DNA of 64,000 bases from positions 26,487 to 90,486 of the forward strand of contig JAJRZA010000033.1 in assembly GCA_024275485.1 (NCBI GenBank), read 5' to 3'. The stretch is from Candidatus Krumholzibacteriota bacterium. GTDB lineage: Bacteria; Krumholzibacteriota; Krumholzibacteriia; LZORAL124-64-63. Positions 5,148-63,470 of the stretch are shown piece by piece. Under the pieces are notes generated by a model. The model did not search any database. It saw only the letters and a program-made list of their open reading frames with translations, and was not told the origin of the DNA. Each line of letters begins with the position of its first letter. Positions within the stretch are counted from its first letter, which is position 1. The position numbers and the translations under genes were made by a program.

Positions 5148-6554
5148 CTAGAACTGCTTGCGCATGCGCGCACTCAGGATGCCCATCTGCTCACGGTACT
5201 TGGCTACGGTTCTACGTGCAATCTTAAGATTTTTTTCCTGAAGCATATCGACGATTTTCTTGTCGCTTAGAGGTTTGCCCGGGTTTTCACTGCCGACGAT
5301 GTCCTGGATCATGACCTTGACCGCCTTGGCACTGATTTCGCCTTCGCTTCCACTGCTGTCCAAACCGGCACTGAAGAAGAACTTGAGCGAAAAAACACCC
5401 CTTGGCGTCTGCACGTATTTCTGCCGGGTTACCCGTGAGACCGTACTTTCGTGCATCCCGATAACCGAAGCAACCTGCTGCAATGTCAGCGGCCGCAGGG
5501 CAATGGCGCCCTTCTCGAAAAAATCATGTTGCTCTGCAACAATGGCCTCCATGACCTTGATCATGGTGCGCCGACGCTGCTCGATGGTTTTGATCACCCA
5601 TTCGGCATGGCTTTTTTTATCATTGATGAATTTGACGTCGTCTTCATTGGTGCCGGTCTTGCCTTCGTACGCTTTGCTGACCCGCAGGCGTGGAAGATTG
5701 GAATCGTTGAGGTGAACGGCGTATATATCCTTATTCTCATCCACCTTCACCACCTCAAGATCCGGAGTAATGGCCCGGGCCCCATCGGCGCCGGTGCTCA
5801 ATCCGGGCCGGGGATCCAATTCGCCGATGCTCTGGGCAATTTCCTGGACCTGCTTGGGAGTGATTTTCATCTCCCGGGCGATATCGCTGAACTTGCGATT
5901 TTTTAGGGACTCAAAATGATGCTTGATGATGTGGGCTTCATCGGAATCCCCAAGACCATTAGCTTCCAATTGCAACAACAAGCACTCGGGGATATCCCTG
6001 GCCCCCACTCCCGGAGGATCAAAGCCCTGAATAATTTTCAGGACACCTTCGACCACCTCGTCATCCACTTCGAAAAATGCCGCAATTTCCGGCACCGGGC
6101 AGGCAAGCATACCATCTGCCCCGAGGCAGCCGATGATGTATTCACCAATGGTCCGGTTCTTTCCCTCGGGCATGGACAATTGAAGTTGTTCGGTGAGATC
6201 CTCCTGTCCCGTCGGGATGTATTTCTGGGGACGCTCCAACTCGTCTTCTTCGTCATAGCCGCGTTCGTTGGTCATGCCCCGGAAGCCATCGTCGAAGCTG
6301 TCGCCCCAGTCACGGTCTTCGTTCTGGGGTTCAGGATCCTTTTCGCGTTCGGTATCATCGGCCTGACGCACGGCTTCATCAAGTTCGGTGGCGTCTTCAA
6401 TTTCTTCGTCCCCGTCGATTTCTTCCAACAGGGGGTTTTCCACCAGCTCCTTGCGCAGGATTTGCTCCAGTTCCAAGGTAGGCACCTGCAGCAACTTCAA
6501 CGCCTGCTGCAACCGCTGGGTCATGACGATATTCTGGGTCTGTTTCAGCCCCAT
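5148..6554 (-). CDS. rpoN: RNA polymerase sigma-54 factor
   Basis: Region I reads MGLKQTQNIVMTQRLQQALKLLQVPTLELEQ and the C-terminal part reads ARRTVAKYREQMGI, the RpoN box region. Confidence 0.9.
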   Translation of the reverse strand: MGLKQTQNIVMTQRLQQALKLLQVPTLELEQILRKELVENPLLEEIDGDEEIEDATELDEAVRQADDTEREKDPEPQNEDRDWGDSFDDGFRGMTNERGYDEEDELERPQKYIPTGQEDLTEQLQLSMPEGKNRTIGEYIIGCLGADGMLACPVPEIAAFFEVDDEVVEGVLKIIQGFDPPGVGARDIPECLLLQLEANGLGDSDEAHIIKHHFESLKNRKFSDIAREMKITPKQVQEIAQSIGELDPRPGLSTGADGARAITPDLEVVKVDENKDIYAVHLNDSNLPRLRVSKAYEGKTGTNEDDVKFINDKKSHAEWVIKTIEQRRRTMIKVMEAIVAEQHDFFEKGAIALRPLTLQQVASVIGMHESTVSRVTRQKYVQTPRGVFSLKFFFSAGLDSSGSEGEISAKAVKVMIQDIVGSENPGKPLSDKKIVDMLQEKNLKIARRTVAKYREQMGILSARMRKQF

Positions 6555-6641
6555 ATGGAGCCCGATTTTGGCCACGGTATTACCTTTCCAACAGTATGCT
6601 AAGGGCCAAGGGATTCATCCCGGACCATCATTTCCTACCCA

Positions 6642-17324: not shown

Positions 17325-18191
17325 ATGCACCAAGTCCTCGAACACACCATACTCGGACCCAACGTCCACCTCTTTCGCTTCGAAGCCTACGATGTCGCCC
17401 AATACCGTCAACCCGGCCAATTCGTCATTATCAGGGTCAACGACGAAGGCGAACGTATTCCACTGACCATTGCCGACGTGAATAAAGAAGAAGGCAGCAT
17501 CACCCTCATCGTACAGTCCGTGGGCAAGACCACCCTGGAGATGGCCCAACTCGAAGTCGGCGATTCAATCCCCGACATTTGTGGTCCTCTGGGCGAACCC
17601 ACCCACATCGAAAAAGTCGGCAAAGTTTTGTGCGTCGGCGGCGGTATCGGCACTGCCCCTCTTTACCCAGTGACCAAGGCCATGAAGGAAATCGGCAACC
17701 AGGTCACCAGCATTCTCGGTGCCCGGACCAAGGATCTCCTGATCCTTGAGCAGGAGATGAAGGATGCCAGCCATGGACTTGTCATCACTACAGATGACGG
17801 CTCCTACGGCATGAAAGGCCTAGTCACCAACGCCATAGAAAAACTTGTTGATGAGGGCAACAAGTTCGACCTCTGCGTCTGCATGGGCCCCCCCATCATG
17901 ATGAAATTTGTCAGTCTTTTGACCAAGAAGCTGAACATCCCATGCCTGGTCAGCCTGAACCCCATCATGGTCGACGGCACCGGCATGTGCGGCGGTTGCA
18001 GGGTCACGGTAGATGGTGAAACAAAATTCGCCTGCGTGGACGGACCCGAATTCGACGGCCATCTGGTGGACTTCGACGAAATGATGAGCCGCCTGACCAT
18101 GTACAAATCCTTCGAAAAAGACTCGCTGGATCATTACATGGGCGAAACCGGATGCAAGCTCGAAAACGCAGTCAAAGGGGAACCAAAATGA
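17325..18191 (+). CDS. nfnA: NfnA-like small subunit (PyrK/ferredoxin-NADP reductase-like, FAD and [2Fe-2S])
   Basis: PyrK-like fold with the C-terminal Cys cluster CGGCRV...C; its stop overlaps the next gene's ATG. Confidence 0.7.
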   Translation: MHQVLEHTILGPNVHLFRFEAYDVAQYRQPGQFVIIRVNDEGERIPLTIADVNKEEGSITLIVQSVGKTTLEMAQLEVGDSIPDICGPLGEPTHIEKVGKVLCVGGGIGTAPLYPVTKAMKEIGNQVTSILGARTKDLLILEQEMKDASHGLVITTDDGSYGMKGLVTNAIEKLVDEGNKFDLCVCMGPPIMMKFVSLLTKKLNIPCLVSLNPIMVDGTGMCGGCRVTVDGETKFACVDGPEFDGHLVDFDEMMSRLTMYKSFEKDSLDHYMGETGCKLENAVKGEPK

Positions 18192-19651
18192 AGAAAAAAG
18201 AAAGGATGCAAATCGACCCTGTGGACATGCCCCAGCAGGACCCAAAACTGCGGGTGCTCAACGTCGATGAAGTCCCAACAGGCTATACCGCTGAAATGGC
18301 CATGCTCGAAGCAAAACGCTGCATCCAGTGCAAGCGCCCCTTTTGCACCGAAGGTTGCCCCGTGGGCATCGATATCCCTGCCTTCATCCAGCTCATTGAA
18401 GATGGGGATTTTGCCGGAGCCGTGGCCAAGATCAAGGAGACCAACCTCTTGCCGGCTATTTGTGGCCGGGTTTGCCCCCAGGAAGAGCAATGCCAGCTGA
18501 CCTGCACCATTGGCAAGGCCCGCAAGGATCCCACCCAGGCCGTGAACATCGGCCGACTCGAACGTTTTTTGGCAGACTGGGAGCGCGAGCATGGGGACAT
18601 TCCCCTGCCGCCCAAGCCGACACCCACAGGTAAAAAGGTGGCCGTCGTTGGTGGTGGTCCGGCGGGCTTGACCGTGGCTGGAGATTTGATCCGCCAAGGG
18701 CACGAAATCACGGTTTTCGAGGCTTTTCACAAAGCGGGCGGTGTCCTTATCTATGGGATTCCCGAGTTCCGTCTGCCCAAGGCCATCGTTCAGAAGGAGA
18801 TTGATTACCTCGAAAAGCTGGGCGTCCGGTTCAAATACAACTTTGTGGTGGGCAAAACCGCCCCCATGTCAAAAATCGTCGAAGAATACGACGCAGTTTT
18901 TGTGGGCACCGGAGCGGGTTTGCCCCGCTTCATGAAAATCCCCGGGGAAAACCTGCTGGGCGTGTATTCCGCCAACGAGTATCTCACCCGGGCCAACCTG
19001 ATGCAGGCCTACAGTTTTCCAAAAACCGACACCCCGTTGATCACCGGCAAGTCGGTGGCCACCATCGGCGGAGGCAACGTGGCCATGGATTGCGCCCGCA
19101 CCGCCTTGCGCATGGGTGCCAAACGTTCGCTGATTGTCTACCGCCGCGCCGAAGAACAGATGCCGGCCCGCATTGAAGAGATCCACCACGCCAAAGAAGA
19201 AGGGGTGGAATTCCATACTTTGCAAAACCCGCTGAAATTCCTGGGCAACGACGAAAATTGGCTCACGGGCATCGAACTGTTGAAGATGAAACTTGGCGAA
19301 CCCGATGCCTCGGGACGACGCAGTCCGGTGCCCATGCCCGGAACCGAATTCGTTGAAGACGTCGACGTGGTCATTGTGGCCATCGGCAACAGCCCGAACC
19401 CGTTGGTTCCCAGAGATTTTCCTGAACTGGAAGTCACCCGCTGGGGCGGCATCGTGATCAACGAAGCCACCAGCCAAACCAACATTCCCGGAGTTTTTGC
19501 CGGGGGAGATATCGTGTTGGGTGCGGCCACCGTCATCCTGGCCATGGGCCACGGACGGCAGGCGGCAAAGTCCATCAACATGTACCTCAGTTCGGGTCGT
19601 TGGAGCGATCTTGAGAGCACCCTTTCGACCGACAGAGCCGATGTTAGATAA
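18188..19651 (+). CDS. nfnB: NfnB-like large subunit (glutamate synthase small-subunit/GltD family, 2x[4Fe-4S], FAD, NAD(P)H)
   Basis: N-terminal Cys clusters CIQCKRPFCTEGCP and CGRVCPQEEQC are followed by VAVVGGGPAGL and VATIGGGNVAMDCA. Confidence 0.75.
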   Translation: MKKKERMQIDPVDMPQQDPKLRVLNVDEVPTGYTAEMAMLEAKRCIQCKRPFCTEGCPVGIDIPAFIQLIEDGDFAGAVAKIKETNLLPAICGRVCPQEEQCQLTCTIGKARKDPTQAVNIGRLERFLADWEREHGDIPLPPKPTPTGKKVAVVGGGPAGLTVAGDLIRQGHEITVFEAFHKAGGVLIYGIPEFRLPKAIVQKEIDYLEKLGVRFKYNFVVGKTAPMSKIVEEYDAVFVGTGAGLPRFMKIPGENLLGVYSANEYLTRANLMQAYSFPKTDTPLITGKSVATIGGGNVAMDCARTALRMGAKRSLIVYRRAEEQMPARIEEIHHAKEEGVEFHTLQNPLKFLGNDENWLTGIELLKMKLGEPDASGRRSPVPMPGTEFVEDVDVVIVAIGNSPNPLVPRDFPELEVTRWGGIVINEATSQTNIPGVFAGGDIVLGAATVILAMGHGRQAAKSINMYLSSGRWSDLESTLSTDRADVR

Positions 19652-19731
19652 CAGATTCCGTTCTTGATTTAACAGAATCTGAAACATACCGTTGCCATGA
19701 GCAATACAAGCTTCCAAAGAGGAGGAAAGCC

Positions 19732-20718
19732 TTGAAAGGTCGCGTACTTATCATCGATGACGAGGCTGAGATTCGCAGGAATCTGACCGTAGGCCTGACC
19801 CAGGAAGATTACTCTGTGGTTGCCTGCCCCGACGGGCTGAGCGCCATCCATGAATTGAATCAGGCCCAGCAAAAGGGCCTCGCCTTCGACTACATGATCA
19901 CCGACATCTTCATGCCCGATATTGATGGCCTGAAGATCCTCAAAGTGATCAAAAACCAGTACCCGGATCTGCCTGTGTTGGTGATCACCGGGTTTGGCGA
20001 TGAACGTCTCGAAGTCACTGCCCTTTCCGAACCGAACACCGGTTTTCTGGACAAACCTTTTGAGATCTCCGAGTTGGTCCAAGCCCTCGAGGAACTCTCA
20101 CCCGGACAAACCTCCACCAGCGTTCCCGCAGAAGCCGATGAAGAAGGCATGCGCGAGTCGGTCAGCGCCTACCTCACGGTTATGGTCACCGACCAGGAAA
20201 ACAGCCTTGATATTTACGATCGATTGTACCGGCTTGAAGGCATCGTCAGCTGCGATGCCGTGCGCGGCGATTTCGACATCATCCTGCTGGCCCGCGGAAA
20301 GACCATGGAGGAAGTGCAGGAGATTTTCCAGCGGGTGGCCGAATTTGATGGTCTCGAAGTGCTGTCCATGAGTCCGGTGGAACGACCCAAGCTGGACCGC
20401 GACGTGGATCAGTTCATCGAAAGTTACCAGAAAGCCGTGCGTAGCGAAGCCGGCAAGAAGGAACACACCAACCCCGGCACCATCAGCTACATCATCGTCG
20501 ATATCGACCCCGAGGCCATTCAGAAGATTTTCACCACCGTCTTCTTTGTGGACGAAGTGGTTTTCTGTGACGTGATCGACAAAGGCACCAAGCTCGTGGG
20601 CATGATAACCGGCTTTGGAGCCATGGGACGCACACCGCGGGTCATCGAGAAGCTCTCGCAGATCGACGGCGTTCTGCGTGTGAGAGAAGCCAAGGTGATC
20701 AAACTGATTGAAGACTGA
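19732..20718 (+). CDS. Response-regulator receiver domain fused to two Lrp/AsnC-type C-terminal (RAM-like) domains; no recognisable DNA-binding domain
   Basis: A TTG start lies behind GGAGG. The receiver domain reads VLIIDDE...DYMITDIFMPDIDG...LDKPF. Two segments resembling the Lrp C-terminal fold follow (VRGDFDIILLARGKTMEEV... and DEVVFCDVIDKGTKLVGMI...). Confidence 0.55.
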   Translation: MKGRVLIIDDEAEIRRNLTVGLTQEDYSVVACPDGLSAIHELNQAQQKGLAFDYMITDIFMPDIDGLKILKVIKNQYPDLPVLVITGFGDERLEVTALSEPNTGFLDKPFEISELVQALEELSPGQTSTSVPAEADEEGMRESVSAYLTVMVTDQENSLDIYDRLYRLEGIVSCDAVRGDFDIILLARGKTMEEVQEIFQRVAEFDGLEVLSMSPVERPKLDRDVDQFIESYQKAVRSEAGKKEHTNPGTISYIIVDIDPEAIQKIFTTVFFVDEVVFCDVIDKGTKLVGMITGFGAMGRTPRVIEKLSQIDGVLRVREAKVIKLIED

Positions 20719-20765
20719 CAGTCCCGCCTCCTGAAGCTGGGCAGGACAGGTCAGGTGCTCGTTAC

Positions 20766-20792
20766 GGTCGCCGACCACTGCATGGTCGGCGA
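20766..20792. promoter_or_regulatory. Perfect 10-bp inverted repeat (GTCGCCGACC-N7-GGTCGGCGAC) between the regulator gene and the nuoE-like gene
   Basis: The palindrome is seen directly and no U-tract follows it. It could be an operator or an RNA hairpin. Confidence 0.4.
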
Positions 20793-20821
20793 CTGGCAAA
20801 TGGTCCAGAAAGGAACATGGA

Positions 20822-21319
20822 ATGGTCACCCAGCAGGAGAACTTCAGCTATCGGCTTTGGCGATACGACGGTGCACCGGGAGAACTGATTCCCCTGCTGC
20901 AGTCCGCCCAGGATCACTTCGGTTACATTCCCCGTCGCGCCATCAGCTACACTTCCAGTGTCACCGGCATCCCCGAGTAGGAAATCTACGGGGTCATCAC
21001 TTTTTACAGCCAATTCCGATTGCGCCCCATGGGCAAATTCGTGATCCGCGCCTGCGCCGGCACCGCCTGCCATGTTTCCGGCGCCAAAATGATCACCGAG
21101 ACCATTGAAGACGAAATTGGCATCGGTGTGGGCGATACTTCAGAAGACGGTCTGTTCACCCTGCAGACAGTGGCCTGCATCGGGTGTTGTTCCCTGGCCC
21201 CGGTGGTCATGGTCAACGACGATACTCACGGCTCCCTGAACCCTGCATCCACGCGCAAACTGGTGCGCAAGGTGGCCAGGAAAGCCCGCAAATCCATCGA
21301 CACCAAGACCAAGAGCTAA
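20822..21319 (+). pseudogene. NuoE/HndA/HydC-like thioredoxin-fold [2Fe-2S] subunit interrupted by an in-frame TAG at 20978-20980
   Basis: Both sides of the TAG align to NuoE (...TSSVTGIPE*EIYGVITFYSQF, then CAGTACHVSG...CIGCCSLAPV with all four Cys). This could be a sequencing error, a disrupted gene or readthrough. Alternatively only the C-terminal part (about 21020..21319) is expressed. Confidence 0.5.
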
Positions 21320-21348
21320 GGGCCGGCCCCCTCATAGGAGCACCATCA

Positions 21349-23130
21349 ATGAAGAAAATAATCGTAGGCATGGGCACTTGCGGACTCTCGGCCGGAGCGC
21401 AAGCGGTGTACGACCGTTTGAGTGAGCTGGCCGACGAACATTCCGATCAATGCGAGCTGAGCATCACCGGCTGCATCGGCATGTGTTATCGCGAACCCCT
21501 GGTGGAAATCAACGACGGCAAGAGCCGAGTTATCTACGGCGGTGTCGACGCCAAAAGCGCCGAAGAAATCATCCAGCGTCATGTTTTGAATGATGAGCGC
21601 ATCGTCGACGAAAACTTTGTCTATTGCATTGAGGAAGACGCGTCCACCAATGGCGAAGAAGCCACCTACCTGGATTTGCAGGAACGAATCGTATTACGCA
21701 ATTGTGGTAATATCGATCCAGAAAGCATTAACGATTATATAGCGAGCGGTGGATATGAAGCTGCACGCAAAGTTCTTACCGAGATGACTCCTGAGGAGGT
21801 CGTTGGGGAAGTCAAAGATTCCGGACTGCGGGGCCGTGGAGGCGCGGGTTTTCCCACGGGGTTGAAATGGTCCTTCTGCGCCGGCTACAAGGGTGACAAG
21901 AAATATGTGGTCTGCAACGCCGATGAAGGCGATCCCGGAGCATTCATGGATCGCTCGGTGCTCGAAGGTGATCCCCACGCAGTGCTTGAAGGAATGATTA
22001 TCTGCGCCAAGGCCATTGGCGGCACCCATGGTTACATCTACTGCCGGGCCGAATATCCCTTGGCCATCAAGCGTCTTGAAATTGCTTTGGCCAGTGCCCG
22101 CGAGAAAGGTTTCCTGGGCAAAAACATCATGGATTCCGGTTTTGATTTCGACATGAAAATCAAGCAGGGTGCCGGCGCTTTTGTGTGCGGGGAGGAAACG
22201 GCCCTGTTCGCCTCCATTGAAGGCCAGCGCGGCATGCCCCGCATTCGCCCGCCGTTCCCCGCCGAAGCCGGCCTCTGGCAAAAGCCCACCAACAACAACA
22301 ATGTCGAGACCTTTGCCAACATTCCCTGGATCATTCGCAATGGTGCGGCCGCCTACTCGGCCTACGGCACCGAAAAAAGCAAGGGCACCAAGGTTTTCGC
22401 CCTGACCGGACGGGTGGTCAAAGGCGGCCTGGCCGAAGTACCCATGGGTACCACAATTGAAGACCTGGTATTCAAGATCGGGGGCGGAATCAAGGATGGC
22501 GGGACCTTCAAGGCGGTGCAGATGGGTGGCCCGAGCGGCGGTTGCATCCCCGCCGACCAGAAGAATATCAAGGTGGATTTTGAGACCATCCCCAAAACCG
22601 GCGCCATCATGGGATCCGGCGGCATGGTGGTCATGGATCAAACCACCTGCATGGTCGAGATCGCCAGATTCTTTCTGGATTTCACTCAGAGCGAGAGTTG
22701 CGGCAAGTGCGCCTTCTGCCGTATCGGCACCCTGCGCATGCTGGAAATCCTGGAGCGTCTGGTGCATGGTGAAGGCGTTCCCGAGGACATCGACAAGTTG
22801 AAAGAACTGTCGGTGCGCATCAAGGAAGCCAGCCTTTGCGGCCTGGGTCAGACTGCGCCCAATCCGGTGCAAACCACCTTGCGTTATTACCTGCACGAAT
22901 ACGAAGCCCACATCCGGGATCAGAAATGTCCCGCCGGCAGTTGCCAGGCCCTTGTGGATTTCATCATCGATGGGGAAAAATGCAACGGTTGCACGGTTTG
23001 CGCCAAGGCCTGCCCGGTGGATGCCATATTCGGAGTGAAAAAGGAAATCCACGTGATTGATACGGACGCGTGTGTGCAATGCGGCAAGTGCCTCACCAGT
23101 TGCAGCTTTGACGCGATTTTCACGCGGTAA
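21349..23130 (+). CDS. NuoF/HydB/HndC-like NADH-binding FMN subunit with extra N-terminal [2Fe-2S] and C-terminal 2x[4Fe-4S] ferredoxin domains
   Basis: The N-terminal Cys motif reads GTCGLSAG...GCIGMC. The NuoF core has GRGGAGFPTGLKW and CGKCAFCR. The C-terminus reads CNGCTVCAKACP...CVQCGKCLTSC. A ribosome-binding site TAGGAG is present. Confidence 0.85.
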   Translation: MKKIIVGMGTCGLSAGAQAVYDRLSELADEHSDQCELSITGCIGMCYREPLVEINDGKSRVIYGGVDAKSAEEIIQRHVLNDERIVDENFVYCIEEDASTNGEEATYLDLQERIVLRNCGNIDPESINDYIASGGYEAARKVLTEMTPEEVVGEVKDSGLRGRGGAGFPTGLKWSFCAGYKGDKKYVVCNADEGDPGAFMDRSVLEGDPHAVLEGMIICAKAIGGTHGYIYCRAEYPLAIKRLEIALASAREKGFLGKNIMDSGFDFDMKIKQGAGAFVCGEETALFASIEGQRGMPRIRPPFPAEAGLWQKPTNNNNVETFANIPWIIRNGAAAYSAYGTEKSKGTKVFALTGRVVKGGLAEVPMGTTIEDLVFKIGGGIKDGGTFKAVQMGGPSGGCIPADQKNIKVDFETIPKTGAIMGSGGMVVMDQTTCMVEIARFFLDFTQSESCGKCAFCRIGTLRMLEILERLVHGEGVPEDIDKLKELSVRIKEASLCGLGQTAPNPVQTTLRYYLHEYEAHIRDQKCPAGSCQALVDFIIDGEKCNGCTVCAKACPVDAIFGVKKEIHVIDTDACVQCGKCLTSCSFDAIFTR

Positions 23131-23166
23131 CGAGTTCCCAAACGAGCCAGTTCTTAGGAGCAGCCG

Positions 23167-26100
23167 ATGAGTACCATAAAAATGACAGTCAACGGGCGGG
23201 AAATCGAAACTTCCGGTGACAAAACCATCCTCGAAGTGGTTCATGACCAGGGTCTGGATACTATCCCGACCCTGTGCCACAGCCCGGAACTCAAACCCTA
23301 CGGATCCTGCTTCCTTTGTGTGGTCGAAGTGGAAGGGCGCCCCAATCTGGTGCCCTCCTGCGCCACCCGGGTGATGGATGGCATGAAGGTGGAAACGAAA
23401 AATCCGCGCATCAGAGCCAGCCGCAAAACCGCCCTGGAGCTGTTGCTATCCAACCACTACGCCGATTGCAGCAGCCCCTGCATGGAAGGCTGTCCCGCCC
23501 ACGTGGACGCCCAGGGCTACATCGCCCTGGCAGCCATGGGCGAAAACCTCAAGGCTGTCGAGTTGATCCGTGAAGCCAACCCCCTGCCTGCGGTTTGCGG
23601 GCGCATCTGCGTGCGCAAGTGCGAAGTGGTTTGCCGGAGGGAAGACGTCGATACCCCGGTGGCCATCAACAACATCAAACGTTATGTCACGGATATGGAA
23701 GACATCTATGACGCGGACCCGGTTTGCGATGCAGACACGGGAAAAAGCGTGGGCCTGGTCGGCTCGGGACCTGCCAGCCTCACCGCCGCCTGGTACCTGG
23801 GTCGCAAGGGCATCAAGGCCGTCATGTATGAAGCCCTCGACCTCACAGGGGGCATGCTGCGCTACGGCATCCCCGAATACCGACTGACCGATGAGGTGCT
23901 GGACAAGGAAATCGACTACATCCTGCGCACTGGTGCGGAAATCAAAACCGGAGTGCGAATTGGCACCGACATTTCTCTGGACGAATTGCGCAACAGGCAT
24001 GACGCAGTCTTTATCGGTGCCGGAGCCTGGACCGGCAAGAGCATGCGGGTCGAAGGCGAGCACACCACCGAAGGCGTGGTCACCGGTGCCGACTGGCTGC
24101 CCGAAATGGTCAACCATCCAGTACAGCTGCAAGGAAAGGTGGTGGTGGTGGTCGGTGGCGGCAACACCGCCATGGATTGCGCCCGCACCGCATGGCGCCT
24201 GGACGCGGCCAAGGTGATCGTGCTTTACCGTCGAACCAAGAACGAAATGCCCGCCGACAATATGGAGATCGAGGATTTGCTGGAAGAGGGGGTGGAGATA
24301 ATGGAGCTGATGGCCCCCATCGGCATCGTGAACGACAACGGCAAACTCCAGGCCATCCGTTGCCAGCGCATGGCCCTGGGCGAACCCGATGATTCCGGTC
24401 GCCGCCGCCCCGTGCCCCAGGAAGGCAGCGAATTCGACCTGCCCTGCGATCTTGCCCTGAGCGCCATTGGCCAGGACACCGTGCTTGACGGTCTTGTTGA
24501 AACGGAACTGGGCACCGTTGAATTAACGCGTTGGAATACTTACGCCGTCAATACCAATACCCTTGAAACCAACATCCCCGGCGTATTCGCCGGTGGTGAC
24601 GCCGTGGACGACGGCCCCACCGTGGTGATCGATGCCATCGGTGACGGCCAACGGGCAGCCAGATCCATGATCGCCTACATCACAGGCGGAGTAGTCGAGC
24701 GGGAACCCTTTGTGGTGAGGAAATCCTTCTGGGCCAAACCGGGCAAGAAGGAGCTGGGCGACATCCCCGAATCGCCCCGGCACGAATTGCACCTGTTGGA
24801 AGTCGATGACCGCCGGAGCAATTTCAGCGAAGTCGCCACCGGCTTTGAATTTGCCGACAAACAGCACGAAACCGCCCGTTGCCTGAGCTGCGGTTGCGTG
24901 CGCTTCGATGATTGCGCCCTGCGCCTCTACGGCCAGGAATACAACGTCGACATGGAGCGCTACAAGGGTTACATCCGCAAGCACAAGGTGGATGACCGCC
25001 ACCCGTATGTGAGTTACGACCCCAACAAATGCATTCTCTGTTCGCGTTGCATACGCACCTGTGAGAAGGTCCTGCCCATCAGCGCCCTCGGCCTCGTTGG
25101 CCGAGGCTTCAGAACCGAGATGCGGCCGGCCATGAACGACGCCCTGCAGGATACGAACTGCGTCAGCTGCGGCAACTGCATCGACGCCTGTCCCGTAGGT
25201 GCCCTGACCGCCCAGTATGCCTTCGATGGCCGGGCCTGCCTCGACACCCTGGATGTTAAAACCCACTGCGCGTTCTGCTCCATCGGTTGCACTTTGACCA
25301 TCCGCAAATTTGGAGAAAGCAGCTATTTTGCCACCAGCAGCGGCATTCCCGGCGACTACCTCTGCCGTTACGGACGCTTTGGTGCGGAGTTGCTCATCCA
25401 GAGCGACCGCATCGACAGCCCCATGATTCGTGAAGGCCATACCTACCGGGAAGTGGAACTGGGCGAAGCCACCGGGCGAATCGTCGATCGAATGAAAGAG
25501 GTGGCGGCCGAGCACGGTCCCGAAAGCGTGGCCGTATTTGCCAGCCCGGAACTGACCAACGAAGAACTCTACCTGGCCGGACGCCTGGCACGCGAAGGCC
25601 TGGGCACCAACAATGTGGGCTCCCTGGCCATCCTGTCCGGCGCTGGACGAAGCGGCGCCATGGACCCGGCTTTAGGCTTCACCGCCTCCACTGCTGACCG
25701 CAGCTGCCTGAAGGATGCCGACCTGATCATCTGCAACAACACAGCCATGGAATCGGATCACCTGGTTCTCAATGTGGATGTGATCGGCCCCGTGCGCGAT
25801 GGCGGCGCCAGGCTCATTGTCTCCAACAGTACACTGGATCCCGCCGATCAGCGCCTCAGCACCCTCGCGGTGGATCCCATGCGTGGCCGTGGTTCCTACT
25901 TCTGGAACGCCGTCCTGCAGGAAGTTCTCGAAAGCGACCACCTGGGCTGCGACGGCATTGCCGGTGCCGAGGAATTCCTGGACGGAAGAAACGTCTCGTT
26001 TGAACTGGCAGCAGCCAAGTCCGGTGTGGACGAAAAACATATTCATGAAGCGGCTGAACTTATACGGCAGGCCAATAACATTGTCATCGTGCATGGTATT

Positions 26101-26853
26101 GATCGTCCCCATGACGCTGCACCCGGCGACCTGGAAATCTTCACCAACCTGGCAATCCTGTTGAACCATCATGGCCGCAATGCGGAGATTCTGCTGCCTC
26201 GTCAGCTGGCCAACAGCGCCGGCCTGGAAATCATGGGAGCCGATCCCGCTTTCGACCTGGGCAAGGTTGCCGCCCCCAAGCTCCCCGGCGCCCTCAACAG
26301 TCAGCAACTCCGCTCCAACCTCGAGGGTGGTCACATCAGGGCCGCCCTGATCCTGGGCGAGAATCCCCTGGATTTCGATCGCACCGGCAGTTGGTTTCAG
26401 AACATTGAATTCTTGGCAGCCATGGATTGGACTGAAACCGAAACCACGCGTTTCGCCGATGTCACCTTGCCCGGGTCCACCTTCCTGGAGACCGCCGGCA
26501 GCCGATGCAATTTCGAAGGCCTGGTCACCGACTTCAGCGCCGCCGTTCAGCCTCCCAGTGGCCTCGGCGGAATTGAGGTTCTGGAAAAACTGACGAGCGA
26601 CTTTGGCCTGGAAGTCCCCGGGAACCTGTCCACCCATATCGACCGCCTCGTCGCCAAAAACCTCGGCGCCCTGAAACCCTTCTACTGGAATACGGGACAG
26701 GATCGCCTGCGTCCGGCCGAGGTTCAATTGATCCCGGTGGAGGTCGACGCCAAGGCCTCGTCCATGCGTCCGCCAATGACCCATAGCCAGAAATACCGCA
26801 AGGAAATCCGAGAGGTAGGCACCGAGCGGTTCCGTGTGCAGCACGGTCACTAA
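23167..26853 (+). CDS. 1228-aa fusion oxidoreductase with domain order NuoG-like [2Fe-2S], GltD-like FAD/NAD(P)H, [4Fe-4S] clusters, molybdopterin-oxidoreductase-like; SfrB+SfrA-like
   Basis: The N-terminal motif reads CHSPELKPYGSCFLC. GltD-like motifs follow (CGRICVRKCEVVC, VGLVGSGPASL, VVVVGGGNTAMDCA). Then come HxxxC/4Fe-4S motifs (CLSCGCVRFDDC, CILCSRCIRTCE, CVSCGNCIDACP), a Molybdop_Fe4S4-like CAFCSIGC...CRYGRFG and a molybdopterin-like C-terminal half. I see no [FeFe]-hydrogenase H-cluster motifs. Confidence 0.75.
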   Translation: MSTIKMTVNGREIETSGDKTILEVVHDQGLDTIPTLCHSPELKPYGSCFLCVVEVEGRPNLVPSCATRVMDGMKVETKNPRIRASRKTALELLLSNHYADCSSPCMEGCPAHVDAQGYIALAAMGENLKAVELIREANPLPAVCGRICVRKCEVVCRREDVDTPVAINNIKRYVTDMEDIYDADPVCDADTGKSVGLVGSGPASLTAAWYLGRKGIKAVMYEALDLTGGMLRYGIPEYRLTDEVLDKEIDYILRTGAEIKTGVRIGTDISLDELRNRHDAVFIGAGAWTGKSMRVEGEHTTEGVVTGADWLPEMVNHPVQLQGKVVVVVGGGNTAMDCARTAWRLDAAKVIVLYRRTKNEMPADNMEIEDLLEEGVEIMELMAPIGIVNDNGKLQAIRCQRMALGEPDDSGRRRPVPQEGSEFDLPCDLALSAIGQDTVLDGLVETELGTVELTRWNTYAVNTNTLETNIPGVFAGGDAVDDGPTVVIDAIGDGQRAARSMIAYITGGVVEREPFVVRKSFWAKPGKKELGDIPESPRHELHLLEVDDRRSNFSEVATGFEFADKQHETARCLSCGCVRFDDCALRLYGQEYNVDMERYKGYIRKHKVDDRHPYVSYDPNKCILCSRCIRTCEKVLPISALGLVGRGFRTEMRPAMNDALQDTNCVSCGNCIDACPVGALTAQYAFDGRACLDTLDVKTHCAFCSIGCTLTIRKFGESSYFATSSGIPGDYLCRYGRFGAELLIQSDRIDSPMIREGHTYREVELGEATGRIVDRMKEVAAEHGPESVAVFASPELTNEELYLAGRLAREGLGTNNVGSLAILSGAGRSGAMDPALGFTASTADRSCLKDADLIICNNTAMESDHLVLNVDVIGPVRDGGARLIVSNSTLDPADQRLSTLAVDPMRGRGSYFWNAVLQEVLESDHLGCDGIAGAEEFLDGRNVSFELAAAKSGVDEKHIHEAAELIRQANNIVIVHGIDRPHDAAPGDLEIFTNLAILLNHHGRNAEILLPRQLANSAGLEIMGADPAFDLGKVAAPKLPGALNSQQLRSNLEGGHIRAALILGENPLDFDRTGSWFQNIEFLAAMDWTETETTRFADVTLPGSTFLETAGSRCNFEGLVTDFSAAVQPPSGLGGIEVLEKLTSDFGLEVPGNLSTHIDRLVAKNLGALKPFYWNTGQDRLRPAEVQLIPVEVDAKASSMRPPMTHSQKYRKEIREVGTERFRVQHGH

Positions 26854-26928
26854 TCGCCTTGGCCGCAGCGGTTAATTCATTCCGGCTGGGACGGGGTATA
26901 CCGTCCCTTGCTGAAGGAGAATCCGTTC

Positions 26929-28917
26929 ATGATCAGTCTCGAGGTTTTGTATTCACTTATTGAGGAAAATTACGTTTTCCTGCTGGACTGCGATGCCGAT
27001 GAAAAATTGATTTACTGTAGCAAAGAGCTGAAAAAAAATCTGGGACTTCACCATCCGGCCAGCGTAGTGCCCCATCTTGAAGATGTGCTCGACCCGGCGG
27101 CAATCATCTCTTTTCGCAAAGCCATTTGCAGCGTCAACGAGGGCACCCGCGGCATCAACGCAATGCTGACTCCCAAGCGTCTGCGTTCAACCAATCTTCC
27201 CATGCATGTGCGGTACGTGGAAGAAGATGGCAATAAACACTATCTATTTTTTGGTGCCCAGATAGACACCCTCAACCAAATCAACGACTGGGAAAGGGAA
27301 GAACGAGTCAAGGAGCTGAGTTGTTTGTATGGAGTCGCCGAATGGATCGAAACTTCTCCCAACATCCATGAATTTTTTTCCAAACTGCCGAAATACCTGG
27401 CACCGGGAATGCGCTATCCTGCCGAAGCCGCCATCTATTCCATCTACAATGATGTGGAGTATGGACAGGAGCCGGTCGGCGATGACTTCATCGTTGCTTT
27501 CTTGGTGGTCAACGGCGAACTCAAGGGTGAAATTCGCATCGGCTATATTCGTGATAGCCATGAGTTGCTGCCCGAAGAGCAGAAAATGCTCAGCGAGATC
27601 GGGCGTATCCTGAATCTGGCCATGGAGCGCAAGGAATTGTCCGACGGGGTGGCCCTGAAACAGGAAGAGGAAGCGGAGTTTCGGGAGCGACTGGCACAGC
27701 TGGAAAAAAAAATCAGTGCCCGAGAAGGCGAGCTCGAAGTCCAGCAACAAAAATTGAGCACCGCCGACAGCTACCTCCAACGCATCAACAGTGGTTGGGA
27801 AAAAGCCAGTCGGCGCATGGAGACCATGTTCAAGGCCATGCCTGATCCGGTGATGCTCATTGATCCGGACCTGAACGTGGTTATGAGCAACAAAGCCGAC
27901 GTGCAAACGGGGGAAAAATGTTACCGGGCATACTTCCAGCGTGAAACTCCGTGCCCGGATTGCCGCATCAGTAAAGTTATCCGTGACAAAACACCTGTCA
28001 CCAGCAACATCCGGCAGGAGGGAAAATTTCTCCAATTGCACACCCTACCTGTATTCAACGAGAATCAGGAGGTCGACGGCATCCTGGAGTTCTTGAGGGA
28101 TATCACCCTGGAAAAAACCTACGAGCAGCAAATCCAGCAGGCTGACAAACTGGCCAGCCTCGGGCAATTGGTCAGCGGAATCGGCCATGAGATCAACAAT
28201 CCCAACCAGTTCATCCGGGGCAATGTAAAAATCGTTCGCCAGGCTCTGGAAGACATGCTGCCCATTGTCGACGCCTACTACGAAACCCACCCGGACCTGA
28301 AGATTGCCCGCCTGAAATACGCTTTTTTCAAGGATCACATCATGACACTGGTGGAGGATATGTCCCACGGCAGTGAACGCATCAAGGGTATCGTCGACGG
28401 GTTGCGCGGCTTTGCCCGCAAAGACGAAGGCCTGCTGGTCGACACGGTTGATGTAAACACCCTGCTGGGCGCCACGACCCGCCTGGTGCAAAACGAAGTC
28501 AACAAGCACGCCACCATTGAGCTGGACCTGGGCGAAGACCTTCCCTCCTTCTCCGGCAACAGCCAGAAAATCGAGCAGGTTCTGGTGAACCTGATCGTCA
28601 ACGCCGCCCAAGCCATGGCCGATGATGTGAAGGGACTGATCAGGGTCACCACCAGAAGGGAAGGCAGCCACATAGCCATCCGCATCGCCGACAATGGCCG
28701 TGGTATGGATGAAAAGACCCAGAAGCAGATATTCGACCCCTTCTTTACCACCAAACGAACCAAAGGCGGCACGGGCCTGGGCCTGGCCATCTCTTTCCGA
28801 ATCATTGAAGAACATGGCGGCACCATCACCGTTGCCAGTGAATTCCACAAGGGTACCACCTTCACCGTCCGCCTCCCGGTCGGGGACGACGACACCAAAA
28901 TGGCGGAGAAATCATGA
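26929..28917 (+). CDS. PAS-domain sensor histidine kinase
   Basis: The ATG follows AAGGAG. An H-box GHEINNP and HATPase_c blocks (NLIVNA, DNGRGMD, GGTGLGL) are present; the N-terminal half is PAS-like with a coiled coil. Confidence 0.8.
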   Translation: MISLEVLYSLIEENYVFLLDCDADEKLIYCSKELKKNLGLHHPASVVPHLEDVLDPAAIISFRKAICSVNEGTRGINAMLTPKRLRSTNLPMHVRYVEEDGNKHYLFFGAQIDTLNQINDWEREERVKELSCLYGVAEWIETSPNIHEFFSKLPKYLAPGMRYPAEAAIYSIYNDVEYGQEPVGDDFIVAFLVVNGELKGEIRIGYIRDSHELLPEEQKMLSEIGRILNLAMERKELSDGVALKQEEEAEFRERLAQLEKKISAREGELEVQQQKLSTADSYLQRINSGWEKASRRMETMFKAMPDPVMLIDPDLNVVMSNKADVQTGEKCYRAYFQRETPCPDCRISKVIRDKTPVTSNIRQEGKFLQLHTLPVFNENQEVDGILEFLRDITLEKTYEQQIQQADKLASLGQLVSGIGHEINNPNQFIRGNVKIVRQALEDMLPIVDAYYETHPDLKIARLKYAFFKDHIMTLVEDMSHGSERIKGIVDGLRGFARKDEGLLVDTVDVNTLLGATTRLVQNEVNKHATIELDLGEDLPSFSGNSQKIEQVLVNLIVNAAQAMADDVKGLIRVTTRREGSHIAIRIADNGRGMDEKTQKQIFDPFFTTKRTKGGTGLGLAISFRIIEEHGGTITVASEFHKGTTFTVRLPVGDDDTKMAEKS

Positions 28918-30290
28918 GTGAAAACAGCAATGGAAACATGAGAAAAGTGCTCATCGTTGACGATGATGTGGCCGTGACCAACTACTTCATGGTTTTCCTG
29001 ATGCAGACGGAAATTTTTGAACCCGAAGTGGAAAATGACTCCCGGAAAGTTGCCGGCCTGCTCAAGGACAACACCTACGATGTGATCATGCTCGATCTGG
29101 ATATGCCCAATGTCACGGGCATGGAAATCCTGCGCCAGATGCGGGCCGAAGGCCACGTAACCCCCGTGATCATCCTCACCGGAGTCAGTGACGTGGACCT
29201 GGCCGTAAAATCCATGAAGTATGGTGCCTTCGACTACTTGACCAAACCCGTTGACGACGAACACCTGCTGGAAGTGCTCAGCAGTGCCGTTGAGAAAGGA
29301 AGTCTCCAACAGTCCATGGAAGAATTGCCGGCCGAATCCACCGCCGACGATCTGGAGTTTCAATCGGCATTTGAACACCTGCCCACCCAAGACCCGGCCA
29401 TGTTGAACCTATTCCATCAGGCAGAGACTTTGGCCGAAAGCAACTTGAATATATTCATCTCCGGCGAACGGGGCTCTGGGAAAAAGTCCCTGGCCAGAGC
29501 CGTTCACAAAGCCAGCGGACGCCAGGAGGGCCCGTGCAAGGCCCTGGATTGCACAACACACACGCCGGATGAATTTTCCGGTGTCCTCTTCGGCCGGGCC
29601 AAGGACTGGAGCGGCATCAGCGAGGAGATCCCCGGCGCCCTGAGCGATTCCTCCGGCGGCACCCTCTTCATCAACAACATCGAACACATGAGCCCGGCGG
29701 TGCAACTGCGCTTGAATCATGTGCTACATACTGGTGAATACTACCGGGACAACAGTACCGAAATCCTGCAGGCCGATGTGCGTTTTATCGTTTCCTCAAC
29801 CCACGACCTGACAGGCAGTCAGTTTCGGGAAAGTTTCTCCAGGGATCTGCTCTACCATGTGATGGTCAACAGTCTGCAGATCCCTCCACTGCGGGATCGT
29901 CCCACTGATATTCCTATTCTGGCCAATTTCTTTTTGGCTGAGGAGAATCGGTGCAACAATAAAAAAATCAAAGGTATCACCGATGAGTTGATGGCACTTC
30001 TCACTCAATATTTCTTTCCTGGCAACATGCAGGAACTGCGAAAACTGATTCTCTCGGCCATTGCCGCCACCACTGATGATATGCTCGGCGCCGAAGATCT
30101 TTCCACCTATTCCCGGGAGCGCATCACCCTGGGTACCTGTCGGGGGCCCTTCCGGCCCAGGAAGCTGCAGAATATCATCAGGGAGCAAGTTGCAGATACC
30201 ATCAAATATTGCAAGGGCAACCCAGAAGAGGCCGCCCGTCTGCTGGATATTTCACTGGAGGAAATGAACAGTTACCTGCCTCAGGACTAG
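28914..30290 (+). CDS. NtrC-family response regulator (receiver, AAA+, Fis-type HTH) with a degenerate sigma-54 interaction module
   Basis: The receiver reads VLIVDDD...DLDMP...TKP. The AAA+ region reads GERGSGKK in place of GESGTGKE. GAFTGA is replaced by KDWSGI, Walker B reads NNIE instead of DEIG, and FPGNMQELR replaces WPGNVRELE. The C-terminal HTH is intact. Confidence 0.7.
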   Translation: MSENSNGNMRKVLIVDDDVAVTNYFMVFLMQTEIFEPEVENDSRKVAGLLKDNTYDVIMLDLDMPNVTGMEILRQMRAEGHVTPVIILTGVSDVDLAVKSMKYGAFDYLTKPVDDEHLLEVLSSAVEKGSLQQSMEELPAESTADDLEFQSAFEHLPTQDPAMLNLFHQAETLAESNLNIFISGERGSGKKSLARAVHKASGRQEGPCKALDCTTHTPDEFSGVLFGRAKDWSGISEEIPGALSDSSGGTLFINNIEHMSPAVQLRLNHVLHTGEYYRDNSTEILQADVRFIVSSTHDLTGSQFRESFSRDLLYHVMVNSLQIPPLRDRPTDIPILANFFLAEENRCNNKKIKGITDELMALLTQYFFPGNMQELRKLILSAIAATTDDMLGAEDLSTYSRERITLGTCRGPFRPRKLQNIIREQVADTIKYCKGNPEEAARLLDISLEEMNSYLPQD

Positions 30291-33480: not shown

Positions 33481-35013
33481 CTACCGAACCTCCCGGCTTT
33501 CAATGAGGTCATGCATCCCATACCGGGCAATTTTCTTATACAAACCCTGCCGGGAAAGTCCCAATTGCCGGGCCGCGGGAGCTTTCCGGCCTTCGGCTGC
33601 CGCGATGGCTTTGCGGATGAGGAACTGCTCCAGGATCTGGTTGGCTTGATCCAACTTGCGCAAGGTGCCCAAATCCGATGGGTGGGCCAAACCATCGTCC
33701 CCGGTCTGCACATCCATGGAGAGATGGTTGGGTTTGATGCGATTCACCTTGGGATATAGAGCCAAAAACCTCATGACCTCGTTTTCCAGTTCCCGTACAT
33801 TGCCCGGCCAGCGCCAGGATTGCAAGAGTTGCAGGGCCTCTTCGGAAATGGTGACCTTTTCAGCAGCCCTACCACCCTTTTGCAGGAAGTAGGAGAAAAG
33901 CGGCAGAATGTCTTCCGGCCGATGCCGCAGCGGTGGAATCACCATATTGACAACCTTCAAGCGATAATAAAGATCCAGCCGGAACCGGCCGGTTTCAATT
34001 TCCAGTTGAAGATCCTTGTGGGTGGCCGCCACGAAGCGCAAATCCACGGCCACTCCTTTCAGGTCTCCAATACGACGGACGGTTCTTTCCTGCATCACAC
34101 GTAGGAGTTTGATTTGCAGGGCCAAAGGCATGTCCCCAATTTCATCCAGAAAAAATGTGCCACCGCTTGCTGATGCCAGCAACCCCTTTTTATCGCCCTG
34201 GGCACCTGTGAACGAGCCCGCCTTGTGTCCGAAGAGTTCGCTTTCAAAAAGGGATTCCGGCAGGGCTGCACAGTTCTGCCCCACAAACGGTCCCCCCTTC
34301 CTCGGACTGCAAATATGCAAAGCCTGGGCAACAATCTCCTTGCCCGTCCCACTCTCCCCATTCAAAAGGACATTCACCCCGCTGGCGGCAATGCTCTCCA
34401 ATCGCTCCCCCAGATGTTTCATCTCCTGACTCACTCCAACACAGCCGGGAATACCGGGAATTGTCAGAGGCCGTGGCATGGGAATGGCCCTAGTGCGGTC
34501 CGTGAGTTGAATTCTCTGCGGCTTGTGTTTGGCTGAAGAACCGACTTTCAGGTCAAATTCAGACAAGGGAAACAATGTGGGTTGCCAGGGAAAACCTCCA
34601 CCTGGTGCCATGGCGGGCACGGCACCCAATTGATCCAGCACCGGGGTCAAACGGGCGGCCAGGCGCTGGGACCAAAGGAACACCGCCTCCCGCCAAGGTC
34701 CATCCGACTGAAACCACACGCCAATGCATCCGTGCACCAAGGACCCACTCATGAGAGGCTCAACCCACAGGGCCTTATCCCTTTCCCAATGAGCCAACTC
34801 CTCCTTTCGTCGAGCCATGGCCTGCAAAAAACTGCTGAGAGGCGGACGGGCAGCCAGGCCATCGAGTCGGGCTTGACCGGTGGCCCAGGCGTAGAGAATT
34901 TTCAATGGCGAAGTGGGATCGCGACCTTCTCGGCGGACAACCCACAGAGCCACACCGTCGGCGCCGTGGGGAAAATTGCGCATTTCTTCATACCAAAAAC
35001 TCAAAGTATCCAT
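33481..35013 (-). CDS. Sigma-54-dependent transcriptional activator with an uncharacterised Trp-rich N-terminal sensory domain
   Basis: Has GESGTGKE, ESELFGHKAGSFTGA, GGTFFLDEIGDMP and WPGNVRELEN, plus a C-terminal Fis-type HTH. A GAGGGGG ribosome-binding site is present. Confidence 0.85.
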   Translation of the reverse strand: MDTLSFWYEEMRNFPHGADGVALWVVRREGRDPTSPLKILYAWATGQARLDGLAARPPLSSFLQAMARRKEELAHWERDKALWVEPLMSGSLVHGCIGVWFQSDGPWREAVFLWSQRLAARLTPVLDQLGAVPAMAPGGGFPWQPTLFPLSEFDLKVGSSAKHKPQRIQLTDRTRAIPMPRPLTIPGIPGCVGVSQEMKHLGERLESIAASGVNVLLNGESGTGKEIVAQALHICSPRKGGPFVGQNCAALPESLFESELFGHKAGSFTGAQGDKKGLLASASGGTFFLDEIGDMPLALQIKLLRVMQERTVRRIGDLKGVAVDLRFVAATHKDLQLEIETGRFRLDLYYRLKVVNMVIPPLRHRPEDILPLFSYFLQKGGRAAEKVTISEEALQLLQSWRWPGNVRELENEVMRFLALYPKVNRIKPNHLSMDVQTGDDGLAHPSDLGTLRKLDQANQILEQFLIRKAIAAAEGRKAPAARQLGLSRQGLYKKIARYGMHDLIESREVR

Positions 35014-35467
35014 GGAGCCCCCTCATTTGAAGATTAAATTTTGCGAACCTGTGATAATTTCATCAGGAGGGTTCCAGCCCTGCTGGCACTTTCGCTGGCA
35101 GGCGGAACAGGGGGCAGTTTGCAGAAGATATGCCGTGCAATTGGATGGGACCATGATTTGCATGCTGGGGATGCAAGACTAGAGAGGGAAAGGCTTTATT
35201 GGAGTGTGTTTGGATTAGGGAAATGGGAAGCAAAAATTGGTTTGTTTTTTTTGCATATCAGTGTTACGTGGTTGTTGCAGCTGAAGACTTCCGACCGACC
35301 ACAGAGCCCATCGGCAACGTCAATTCATTGTTGCACTTGACGTTACACCAGGGTGATAATTTGAGAATAGAAAACTGGACCTTTTCCACTGGGGTATTCT
35401 AATTCATTGGCATCAAAGCCGGAAGATCCTCGCAACCTGCTGGCCGACCCTTGTTATTCTATGATGA

Positions 35468-35563
35468 TTATGATCCCAACAAAGCCGGTACGGCAATTAC
35501 AAGAACCACCACCGCACAAACCAAAGCGATGACCAAACCACCCATTTCCTTGACCATACTCAT
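35468..35563 (-). CDS. Candidate 31-aa hydrophobic small membrane peptide (MSMVKEMGGLVIALVCAVVVLVIAVPALLGS)
   Basis: A strong ribosome-binding site AGGAGG sits 8 nt upstream of the ATG and the peptide forms a single predicted TM helix. It lies in an AT-richer 850-bp non-coding island between purM and the sigma-54 activator. Confidence 0.35.
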   Translation of the reverse strand: MSMVKEMGGLVIALVCAVVVLVIAVPALLGS

Positions 35564-35609
35564 TTTCCATTCCTCCTGTTAACCGTACCACCCAGCGAAA
35601 ATTCTGACC

Positions 35610-35627
35610 TTACAATTTGGCTCCCAA
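35610..35627 (-). promoter_or_regulatory. Weak sigma-54-type -24/-12 promoter candidate upstream of the small peptide ORF
   Basis: On the minus strand the sequence TGGGAG-ccaaa-TTGTA has the GG and TTG- elements at the correct spacing. The C of the GC dinucleotide is replaced by T, so the match is imperfect. Confidence 0.2.
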
Positions 35628-35869
35628 ATACCGGATTGCTCACAATACCTATATCGTTCAAAAGACATACCCATTGATCTTTTTGTTGATCCCCCCAAAT
35701 GGACAACCAAAAACCCACTCCCTCGCTTGAACTCCTGAGAATATCGCTAGGCTAAAATCAACCCAATATTTTGATATGATTATTTGTTTTCAGGCCTGTT
35801 TGTTTGGATTTCAGGTTGATTTTGGCTTTTGGGAAACCAGCGACATTCTCTTGGGCACAACTTTTGAAA

Positions 35870-59709: not shown

Positions 59710-61025
59710 TTTCGGTAAATATTATTGTTTGCACCTTCGGGTCCATGCGTAGCGACCAACATACTATCCGGTTCAAAATAAGCCTTGGCACAACGAGCCA
59801 AATCCTCAACCGTCACCGAATCCACCAAGTCGACCAACTCCACCACCGGTACAAAGCGTCCGTAGTATATTTCGTTGCGGGCAGCCCGGAACATCTGGTT
59901 GACCACACCCTCCAGACTAAAAATAAGCTGGCTCTTGATCTGTGCCCGATTGCTTTCAACTTCCGCATCGCGGACACCCTCGGCAATAAGCCGATCATAT
60001 TCCACGCTGATCACCTCGATCAGGCGCCCAAGTTTTTCAGGAGAACAACTGCCGGCGCAGCTGACCAGACCGGTGTCGCGCCCCATGTCCGAATAGTTGT
60101 AAATAGTATAGGCCAGGCCTTCCCGTTCACGAACGGCCTGAAAAATCCGACTGCTCATGCCACCACCCAAAATATTTGTCAGTAGAAACACAGGCAGGCG
60201 ATCCGGATGACTCAAGGCCACCCCCAGGTTTCCAACCTCGAAATAGGTCTGAATAATGGGGCTGGTCAGTTCGAGACTAAACGGGTCCAATTCTTCCAGG
60301 GCCAGATCAATTATGGCGGCGTTTGCTGGTTTGGCCGGCTTGTTGAACCTGGTCTTCTGCACCCCAGGACGAGCCGGAGCATCCAAACAATCCGCAACGA
60401 TATCACGGAATCGGTCCTGAAGGTTGCCAGCCATGGAGATGACCATGTTGTCGCCGCAAAAAAGCCGTGAGTGGTTTGCACGCAGCAAACCGGGACTGAA
60501 GGAGCGGACGGCTCCTGGAGTTCCCAGGATGGGGCGGCCACGACGATGCTTGCCGTAAAGGCGTGCGGCGTAGGCGTCGTGAAGACGGTCGTCGGGAGTA
60601 TCCAGGGCTTCCTGAATCTCCTCGATGACCACACTCTGCTCCAGGGTCACGAGTTTGGGTTCGAAAGCCGGTTTCAACAGCATCTCAGCCAGCAGCTTCA
60701 CAGCCGACTCGAAGTACTCAGGCAAAACCTTGATGGTGAAAGCCACGGCGTCCTTGGTGGTGAAAGCATCCACAGCTGCGCCCATACTGTCGAAACATTG
60801 GGCGATTTCAAAGGCGGAGTGGTTTTCCGATCCCTTGAACACCATGTGCTCAAGGAAGTGGGAAATCCCGCCAAGACCATCGGGTTCGTCCTGACTGCCG
60901 ATTCGCAACCACACACCCAAAGTTACGGCATGGGCCGTATTCATGGGAGTGGTCAGCAAAACAGCCCCGCCGGGAAGAACCTCCCGGCGGGGTGCATTTT
61001 CGTTCCTGTAGGGATCGAAATTCAT
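59706..61025 (-). CDS. M16-family zinc peptidase (insulinase/PqqL-like)
   Basis: The inverted zinc motif [10 protein letters not shown] is present. Confidence 0.8.
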
Positions 61026-61037
61026 GCAGACTTCCGC

Positions 61038-63439: not shown

Positions 63440-63470
63440 ATCGATTCTATGAACATTCAACCTGGCTGGA

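Follow-up and report, generated by a model that had tools for sequence, protein, structure and literature searches.

An in-frame amber codon at an invariant serine of an nfnC-like gene: most probably a recent nonsense mutation or an incorrect base rather than recoding

A stop codon lying within an otherwise conserved reading frame can be read through, can divide the gene into two working parts, can inactivate it or can be an incorrect base in the deposited sequence. This question is raised by a NuoE-like gene in the 64-kb stretch of DNA analyzed here (the window). For this gene, an initial annotation described an in-frame TAG with conserved sequence on both sides and offered four explanations: sequencing error, recent nonsense mutation, readthrough or suppression of the stop, and expression of only a C-terminal 2Fe-2S fragment. 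We conclude that the TAG most probably reflects an ordinary nonsense mutation of recent date or an incorrect base, and we see no evidence of recoding. The features of the interrupted gene are as follows.

20822..20977, plus strand: codons 1-52 of the nfnC/nuoE-like gene, first part of the N-terminal helical anchor domain
20978..20980, plus strand: in-frame TAG in place of the invariant Ser53 codon
20981..21319, plus strand: codons 54-165 and TAA of the nfnC/nuoE-like gene, covering what remains of the N-terminal domain, followed by the thioredoxin-like [2Fe-2S] domain, which bears Cys78, Cys83, Cys119 and Cys123
21029..21319, plus strand: 96-aa C-terminal fragment (P0144) from the ATG chosen by the public gene caller, without a Shine-Dalgarno sequence upstream

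From ATG 20822, the frame (MVTQQENFSY...SSVTGIPE) runs for 52 codons up to the TAG at 20978-20980, and the window gene is thus not an uninterrupted frame for a single polypeptide. Beyond the TAG, the same frame continues as EIYGVITFYSQF...CAGTACHVSG...CIGCCSLAPV up to the TAA at 21317-21319; this part of the nfnC frame was also rendered as EIYGVITFYSQFRLRPMGKF...CAGTACHVSG...CIGCCSLAPV.... When the product was searched as a 165-aa sequence with X placed at the TAG, it matched PF01257 (2Fe-2S_thioredx) with 162.6 bits (cut-off 24.8; E 6.8e-48) over profile positions 7-144 of 145, and the NCBIfam NuoE model NF005722 with 146.9 bits against a cut-off of 141. Its closest full-length homologue, P0156, is also 165 aa long and is 95.7% identical over 164 residues. 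These profile matches and this identity show that the sequences flanking the TAG on either side are homologous far beyond chance, and the description of a TAG within a NuoE-like gene with conserved flanks is therefore borne out. C78, C83, C119 and C123, the [2Fe-2S] ligands, are invariant in a 25-sequence alignment and are all kept in the window gene. In the public protein collection, the gene is represented by two separate products of 52 aa and 96 aa (the latter from ATG 21029), each known from just one NCBI contig, which is 151,652 bp long. A search of that collection with nfnC returned 7975 significant relatives, the best of which are single polypeptides of 161-196 aa; cluster representatives among the relatives reach up to 92% identity. 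No second nuoE paralogue was found by tblastn in the 64-kb window.

The NuoE/HndA label proved correct at the family level, and the closest solved relatives are the NfnC/StnC subunits of Bfu-type transhydrogenases. The best solved match of the NfnC product is 9n5u_C, the archaeal NfnC of an Nfn-Bfu transhydrogenase (E 2.6e-49), followed by 9bov_C of Caldicellulosiruptor saccharolyticus NfnABC and by 8oh5_A, the E values of these matches lying between 2.6e-49 and 4e-46. We take the 8oh5 complex to be of the Stn type; its gamma subunit is deposited as 'NAD-dependent formate dehydrogenase gamma subunit'. The genes surrounding nfnC are as follows.

17325..19651, plus strand: NfnSL-type (NfnAB) transhydrogenase gene pair, a possible functional back-up (matches to 5jca_S, 4ylf_B and 5jca_L)
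19732..20718, plus strand: response regulator with REC and AsnC-type ligand-binding domains (Pfam), between the enzyme clusters
21349..23130, plus strand: nfnB/nuoF-like flavoprotein subunit, intact, 593 aa (matches to 8oh5_B, 9bov_B and 9n5u_B)
23167..26853, plus strand: nfnA-like large subunit, intact, 1228 aa (matches to 9bov_A, 8oh5_C and 9n5u_A, which is NfnA)

The nfnB product aligns end to end with 8oh5_B (E 3.6e-250), 9bov_B (E 1.6e-243) and the NfnB chain 9n5u_B (E 7e-236), and Pfam reports PF01512, PF10589 and two Fer4 motifs in it. The nfnA-like product aligns with 9bov_A over residues 3-1150 (E 2.7e-233) and combines a 2Fe-2S domain, a GltD/NfnL-like FAD domain, 4Fe-4S clusters and an Fdh-like molybdopterin-fold domain. 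In the Bfu family, BfuB has been described as containing Nuo51 FMN-binding, 51-kDa Fe-S, SLBB and C-terminal 2x[4Fe-4S] ferredoxin domains (Schut et al. 2022, PMC9304861; PMC11829005). BfuA has at least 2Fe-2S and 4Fe-4S ferredoxin-type domains, to which the Nfn type adds fused GltD/NfnL-like FAD and Fdh-like domains, and BfuC (IPR002023) is encoded adjacent to BfuB (PMC9304861; PMC11829005). The Pfam domains of the nfnA-like product (Fer2_4, Fer4_20, Pyr_redox_2, Fer4_Nqo3 and Molybdopterin) are those of a BfuA of the Nfn type, and nfnC at 20822-21319, although interrupted here, lies directly upstream of nfnB at 21349. Judged by sequence, the gene is best described as the nfnC/bfuC gene of a putative NfnABC/Stn-type (Bfu) electron-bifurcating NADPH:NAD/ferredoxin oxidoreductase. 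Enzymes of this type carry out the NADPH-dependent reduction of NAD and ferredoxin through electron bifurcation (PMC9304861; PMC11829005). In the C. saccharolyticus NfnABC structure, the N-terminal domain of NfnC sits as a wedge between NfnA and NfnB, anchoring the subunit (PMC11829005), while the mobile C-terminal domain bears cluster C1 of the [B1-FMN-C1] bifurcation site (PMC11829005; PMC9304861).

Upstream of this gene set, the frame at 17325-18191 matches 5jca_S (E 1e-102), and that at 18152-19651 matches 4ylf_B (E 1.3e-163) as well as 5jca_L. The longest NfnL-like ORF, from ATG 18152, overlaps nfnS by 40 nt (18152-18191), and its exact 499-aa product is absent from the public collection, implying that a different start was taken by the gene caller. 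Within 17325-26853, the NfnSL-type pair and the NfnABC/Stn-type trio, unrelated enzymes predicted to catalyze the same NADPH/NAD/ferredoxin transhydrogenase reaction, are encoded next to each other. The arrangement of NfnSL, regulator and NfnABC is common to the relatives L004, L005, L015 and L020, as judged by blastn, and NfnSL and NfnABC are described as catalyzing the same reaction (PMC12018979). On the 3' side of the nfnA-like gene lie a PAS histidine kinase (26908-28917) and, overlapping it by 4 nt, a sigma-54-dependent response regulator (28914-30290); rpoN is also located within the window (5148-6575, minus strand), and sigma-54 control of the redox operon is possible. Elsewhere in the window, the largest stretch lacking a Pfam-supported gene (35013-35804, approximately 790 nt) contains only a 99-aa ORF at 35041-35340 and has no Rfam match. 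A 993-aa plus-strand ORF at 60471-63452 is the shadow of a minus-strand M16 peptidase gene (59706-61025) and PNPase gene (61038-63257); long antisense ORFs are common in this sequence of 55% GC.

What codon did the TAG replace? The TAG column is occupied by Ser in all 142 full-length homologues compared, and in the 25-sequence alignment Ser is present throughout within the motif IPE-S-EIYGVITFY. P0156 is encoded by five independent metagenome contigs (L084-L088), every one of which has TCG at the aligned codon, and the more distant relatives L001 and L002 have TCC. Given TCG in the nearest relative, TCG is inferred to be the ancestral codon, from which a single C-to-A transversion at 20979 suffices to give the TAG of the window. 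The comparison of orthologues called for in the initial annotation thus agrees with its statement that homologues have a sense codon at this site, and TCG, one of the codons it suggested for the site, is the one present in the closest relative.

The age of the change was assessed from the constraint on the gene, using Nei-Gojobori estimates of dN/dS between the window and L084, which belongs to a sister species. The ratio is 0.018 for codons 1-52 (13 synonymous and 1 non-synonymous difference) and 0.045 for codons 54-165 (31 and 6 differences, respectively); on both sides of the TAG it is as low as in the intact neighbours, namely nfnB (0.034) and the upstream regulator (0.082). When the seven amino-acid differences from the sister were polarized by parsimony with eleven outgroups, three were assigned to the window lineage and three to that of the sister, with one left ambiguous, all at variable positions; no excess of amino-acid change on the window lineage was found in this comparison. 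The dN/dS values and the lineage counts reveal no relaxed constraint and indicate that the stop, if real at all, is extremely young. A long-standing pseudogene is ruled out by the same dN/dS values and lineage-specific counts. The 38 nt immediately after the TAG (20981-21018) are identical to L084, while synonymous divergence elsewhere is approximately 0.5; this identity involves only about 10 synonymous sites and, being compatible with chance, was rejected as a signal. Two of the explanations first offered, sequencing error and recent nonsense mutation, therefore stand, the codon being one base from TCG, with equal constraint on both sides and no excess on the lineage.

Between these two, we consider the TAG to be, on balance, probably a genuine and evolutionarily very recent nonsense allele, fixed or segregating in the sampled population, and favour this reading over a consensus error. 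That the base is real we infer from the quality of the surrounding sequence. Pfam scans of essentially all window genes gave a full-length domain match for every other gene (approximately 57), and no second gene broken by a frameshift or stop was detected among them in the 64 kb, which argues against both an error-ridden assembly and a decaying genome. A 151-kb short-read contig without frameshifts implies good coverage, under which a substitution error in the majority base is unlikely. With approximately 57 accurate genes on a long contig, such coverage may be assumed here, and the real allele is favoured. The local context, moreover, has no homopolymer or repeat that would predispose to error.

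A consensus, base-call or assembly error, in which the organism carries TCG (Ser) and an intact gene while the TAG is confined to the deposited contig, is a possible but less probable explanation. The TAG differs by a single base from the codon of the nearest relative, constraint is relaxed neither on either side of it nor on the window lineage, and the fully intact downstream nfnB and nfnA genes together with the lack of gene decay are precisely the picture expected of an artefact. Oxidative damage to libraries, too, typically leaves C-to-A changes. In addition, a single contig is the only source of the sequence: neither two exact-DNA scans of metagenome contigs nor a scan of genome contigs nor the cluster mates of the neighbouring genes yielded a further sequence from this species. 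The metagenome collection scanned evidently does not include the samples of the JGI contigs L084, L086 and L088, in which the second of the two DNA patterns is present. The closest relatives found have 87.5% nucleotide identity and 93-96% amino-acid identity, the genome contig scan reached at best 90% amino-acid identity (L003), and cluster mates of the neighbouring genes are at most 93.8% identical. The contig carrying a relative's nfnB (L083) begins 116 nt past the TAG site, so that the codon falls outside it. As regards the distribution of nfnC, the nearest species-representative genome is 'bacterium DOLZORAL124_64_63' (L003, PDQT01000167.1; 90% amino-acid identity), and the next genomes carrying the gene are Aegiribacteria, Fermentibacteria, Krumholzibacteriota and Eisenbacteria MAGs (loci L004-L082); the nearest metagenome contigs, L084-L088, represent the sister species at 87.5% nucleotide identity. 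These relatives put the window within an uncultured FCB-related lineage.

That the TAG is decoded, whether through an amber suppressor tRNA (e.g., a tRNA-Ser whose anticodon is CUA), through insertion of pyrrolysine or through efficient programmed readthrough, such that full-length NfnC is made, is very unlikely. The otherwise perfect conservation of the gene and the intact partner genes count in favour of such decoding, and a suppressor tRNA or pyl genes could sit elsewhere in the genome, of which 64 kb were inspected. However, TAG is a frequent stop in the window: in a greedy set of 58 ORFs, the terminators are 28 TGA, 17 TAA and 13 TAG (approximately 22% TAG). Approximately 12 of the TAG-ended genes, which include those for RpoN, HPF, LptB, KdsB, RpiB, PurE, an OmpA-like protein and sigma-54 activators, are Pfam-supported with profiles that finish at the ORF end, i.e., at natural C-termini. 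An in-frame TAG inside a gene occurs only once in the window, in nfnC, and in none of the approximately 57 other genes. All 142 homologues, with the sister species among them, use serine here, which shows that the TAG has no evolutionary conservation, and the 120 nt following it fold no better than shuffled sequences (z +1.2), giving no stable RNA structure 3' of the codon. The initial annotation had proposed a check for pylTSBCD or an amber suppressor tRNA; within the 64-kb window neither is present, as ARAGORN detected no tRNA and Pfam scans no pyl genes or methylamine methyltransferase, and no Rfam element was found in the window. A full-text search likewise gave no link between pyrrolysine and these lineages in titles or abstracts, the word occurring once in body text. 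Global reassignment of TAG was rejected on the 13 of 58 ORFs that it ends and on the single in-frame case, and pyrrolysine recoding on the unconserved TAG position and the lack of pyl genes or tRNA in the 64 kb. The narrower proposal that a serine-inserting amber suppressor tRNA or condition-dependent readthrough yields full-length NfnC from this broken-looking gene is fainter still; if true, such UAG decoding would represent rare, natural and tolerated amber suppression in an uncultured FCB-related lineage. Readthrough or suppression, the third explanation first offered, is thus argued against by TAG being a normal stop, the window lacking tRNA and pyl genes, and the invariance of Ser.

Least credible of all is a functional split, in which the 52-aa peptide reassembles with a fragment re-initiated at TTG 21020 or ATG 21029, the next in-frame starts after the TAG, or in which the 2Fe-2S fragment functions by itself. 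ATG 21029, the start taken by the public gene caller, does give a 96-aa fragment that retains all four cluster cysteines, and a stand-alone thioredoxin-like 2Fe-2S domain of 85 aa has been solved (2auv_A). However, no Shine-Dalgarno sequence precedes either start: when the upstream 20 nt were paired with a generic anti-Shine-Dalgarno sequence, the duplex energies were +1.0 kcal/mol for TTG 21020 and +0.3 kcal/mol for ATG 21029, compared with -5.3 to -12 at the real starts of the neighbours. The restart would lie 49 nt past the stop, and a fragment beginning at Met70 would be deprived of residues 54-69, to which the invariant GVITFY helix belongs. It is the N-terminal domain that anchors NfnC in the complex (PMC11829005). 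No split or downstream-starting homologue was seen among the best 120 of the 7975 relatives or the cluster members examined, so that orthologues do not uniformly begin at the downstream start, and expression of the C-terminal fragment alone is argued against by these observations.

If the TAG is indeed a genuine allele, the following consequences are predicted. The C-to-A change at 20979 would convert the invariant Ser53 codon TCG to TAG in an otherwise intact nfnC/bfuC gene, and the TAG would be read as a normal stop, so that translation would end with residue 52, still within the N-terminal anchor domain. Apart from trace near-cognate readthrough, no subunit carrying the cluster would be made. 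With the stop at codon 53, both the cluster domain and part of the anchor would be missing, and the NfnABC complex from this allele should be non-functional or nearly so. The NfnSL-type enzyme encoded just upstream could cover the same reaction and might compensate for the loss of NfnC; such tolerance would make a real nonsense allele plausible. The earlier statement that the operon depends on this subunit agrees with the structural literature (PMC11829005), but an enzyme of the NfnSL type with that reaction is encoded just upstream.

The case is an ordinary one, of little consequence. If the allele is real, the population or part of it has just lost Bfu-type NfnABC and kept the adjacent NfnSL-type enzyme, which would be a small natural hint at redundancy between NfnABC and NfnSL. 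If the TAG is an error, only a caution about annotation follows, in that public collections would list a wrongly divided gene as two 'proteins' of 52 aa and 96 aa. In neither case does a new question arise, and wider interest would arise only under the unlikely decoding of the TAG.

Among known systems, the NfnABC/Stn enzymes (9n5u, 9bov and 8oh5) provide the best solved matches for all three window subunits, and share with them the C-B-A gene order, the GltD/NfnL and Fdh-like domains of the NfnA-like subunit and the four Cys ligands of C1. Unlike in those systems, the window nfnC has a premature TAG at codon 53; of the domains described for BfuB, SLBB was not reported by Pfam at E <= 0.001 in the nfnB product. 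NuoE/Nqo2/NDUFV2 of complex I and HoxE, HndA and HydC of NAD-linked hydrogenases belong to the same fold family (PF01257), the NuoE model NF005722 is passed, and the window NfnC product also matches 2fug_2, 7p61_E and HydC chains; in contrast to complex I and the hydrogenases, no membrane-arm nuo gene or hydrogenase catalytic gene adjoins nfnC, whose partners are NfnB- and NfnA-like. The pyrrolysine (UAG) codons of methylamine methyltransferase genes resemble the present case in being in-frame UAGs inside a conserved gene. The window nfnC, however, belongs to another gene family, its TAG site is not conserved in homologues, the window has no pyl genes or tRNA, and TAG is not depleted as a stop. 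Compared with an ordinary bacterial pseudogene or nonsense allele, the window nfnC lacks further decay, so that the event is very young or not real; the likeness to such alleles lies in a one-step nonsense change at a conserved sense codon and in a gene called as two fragments.
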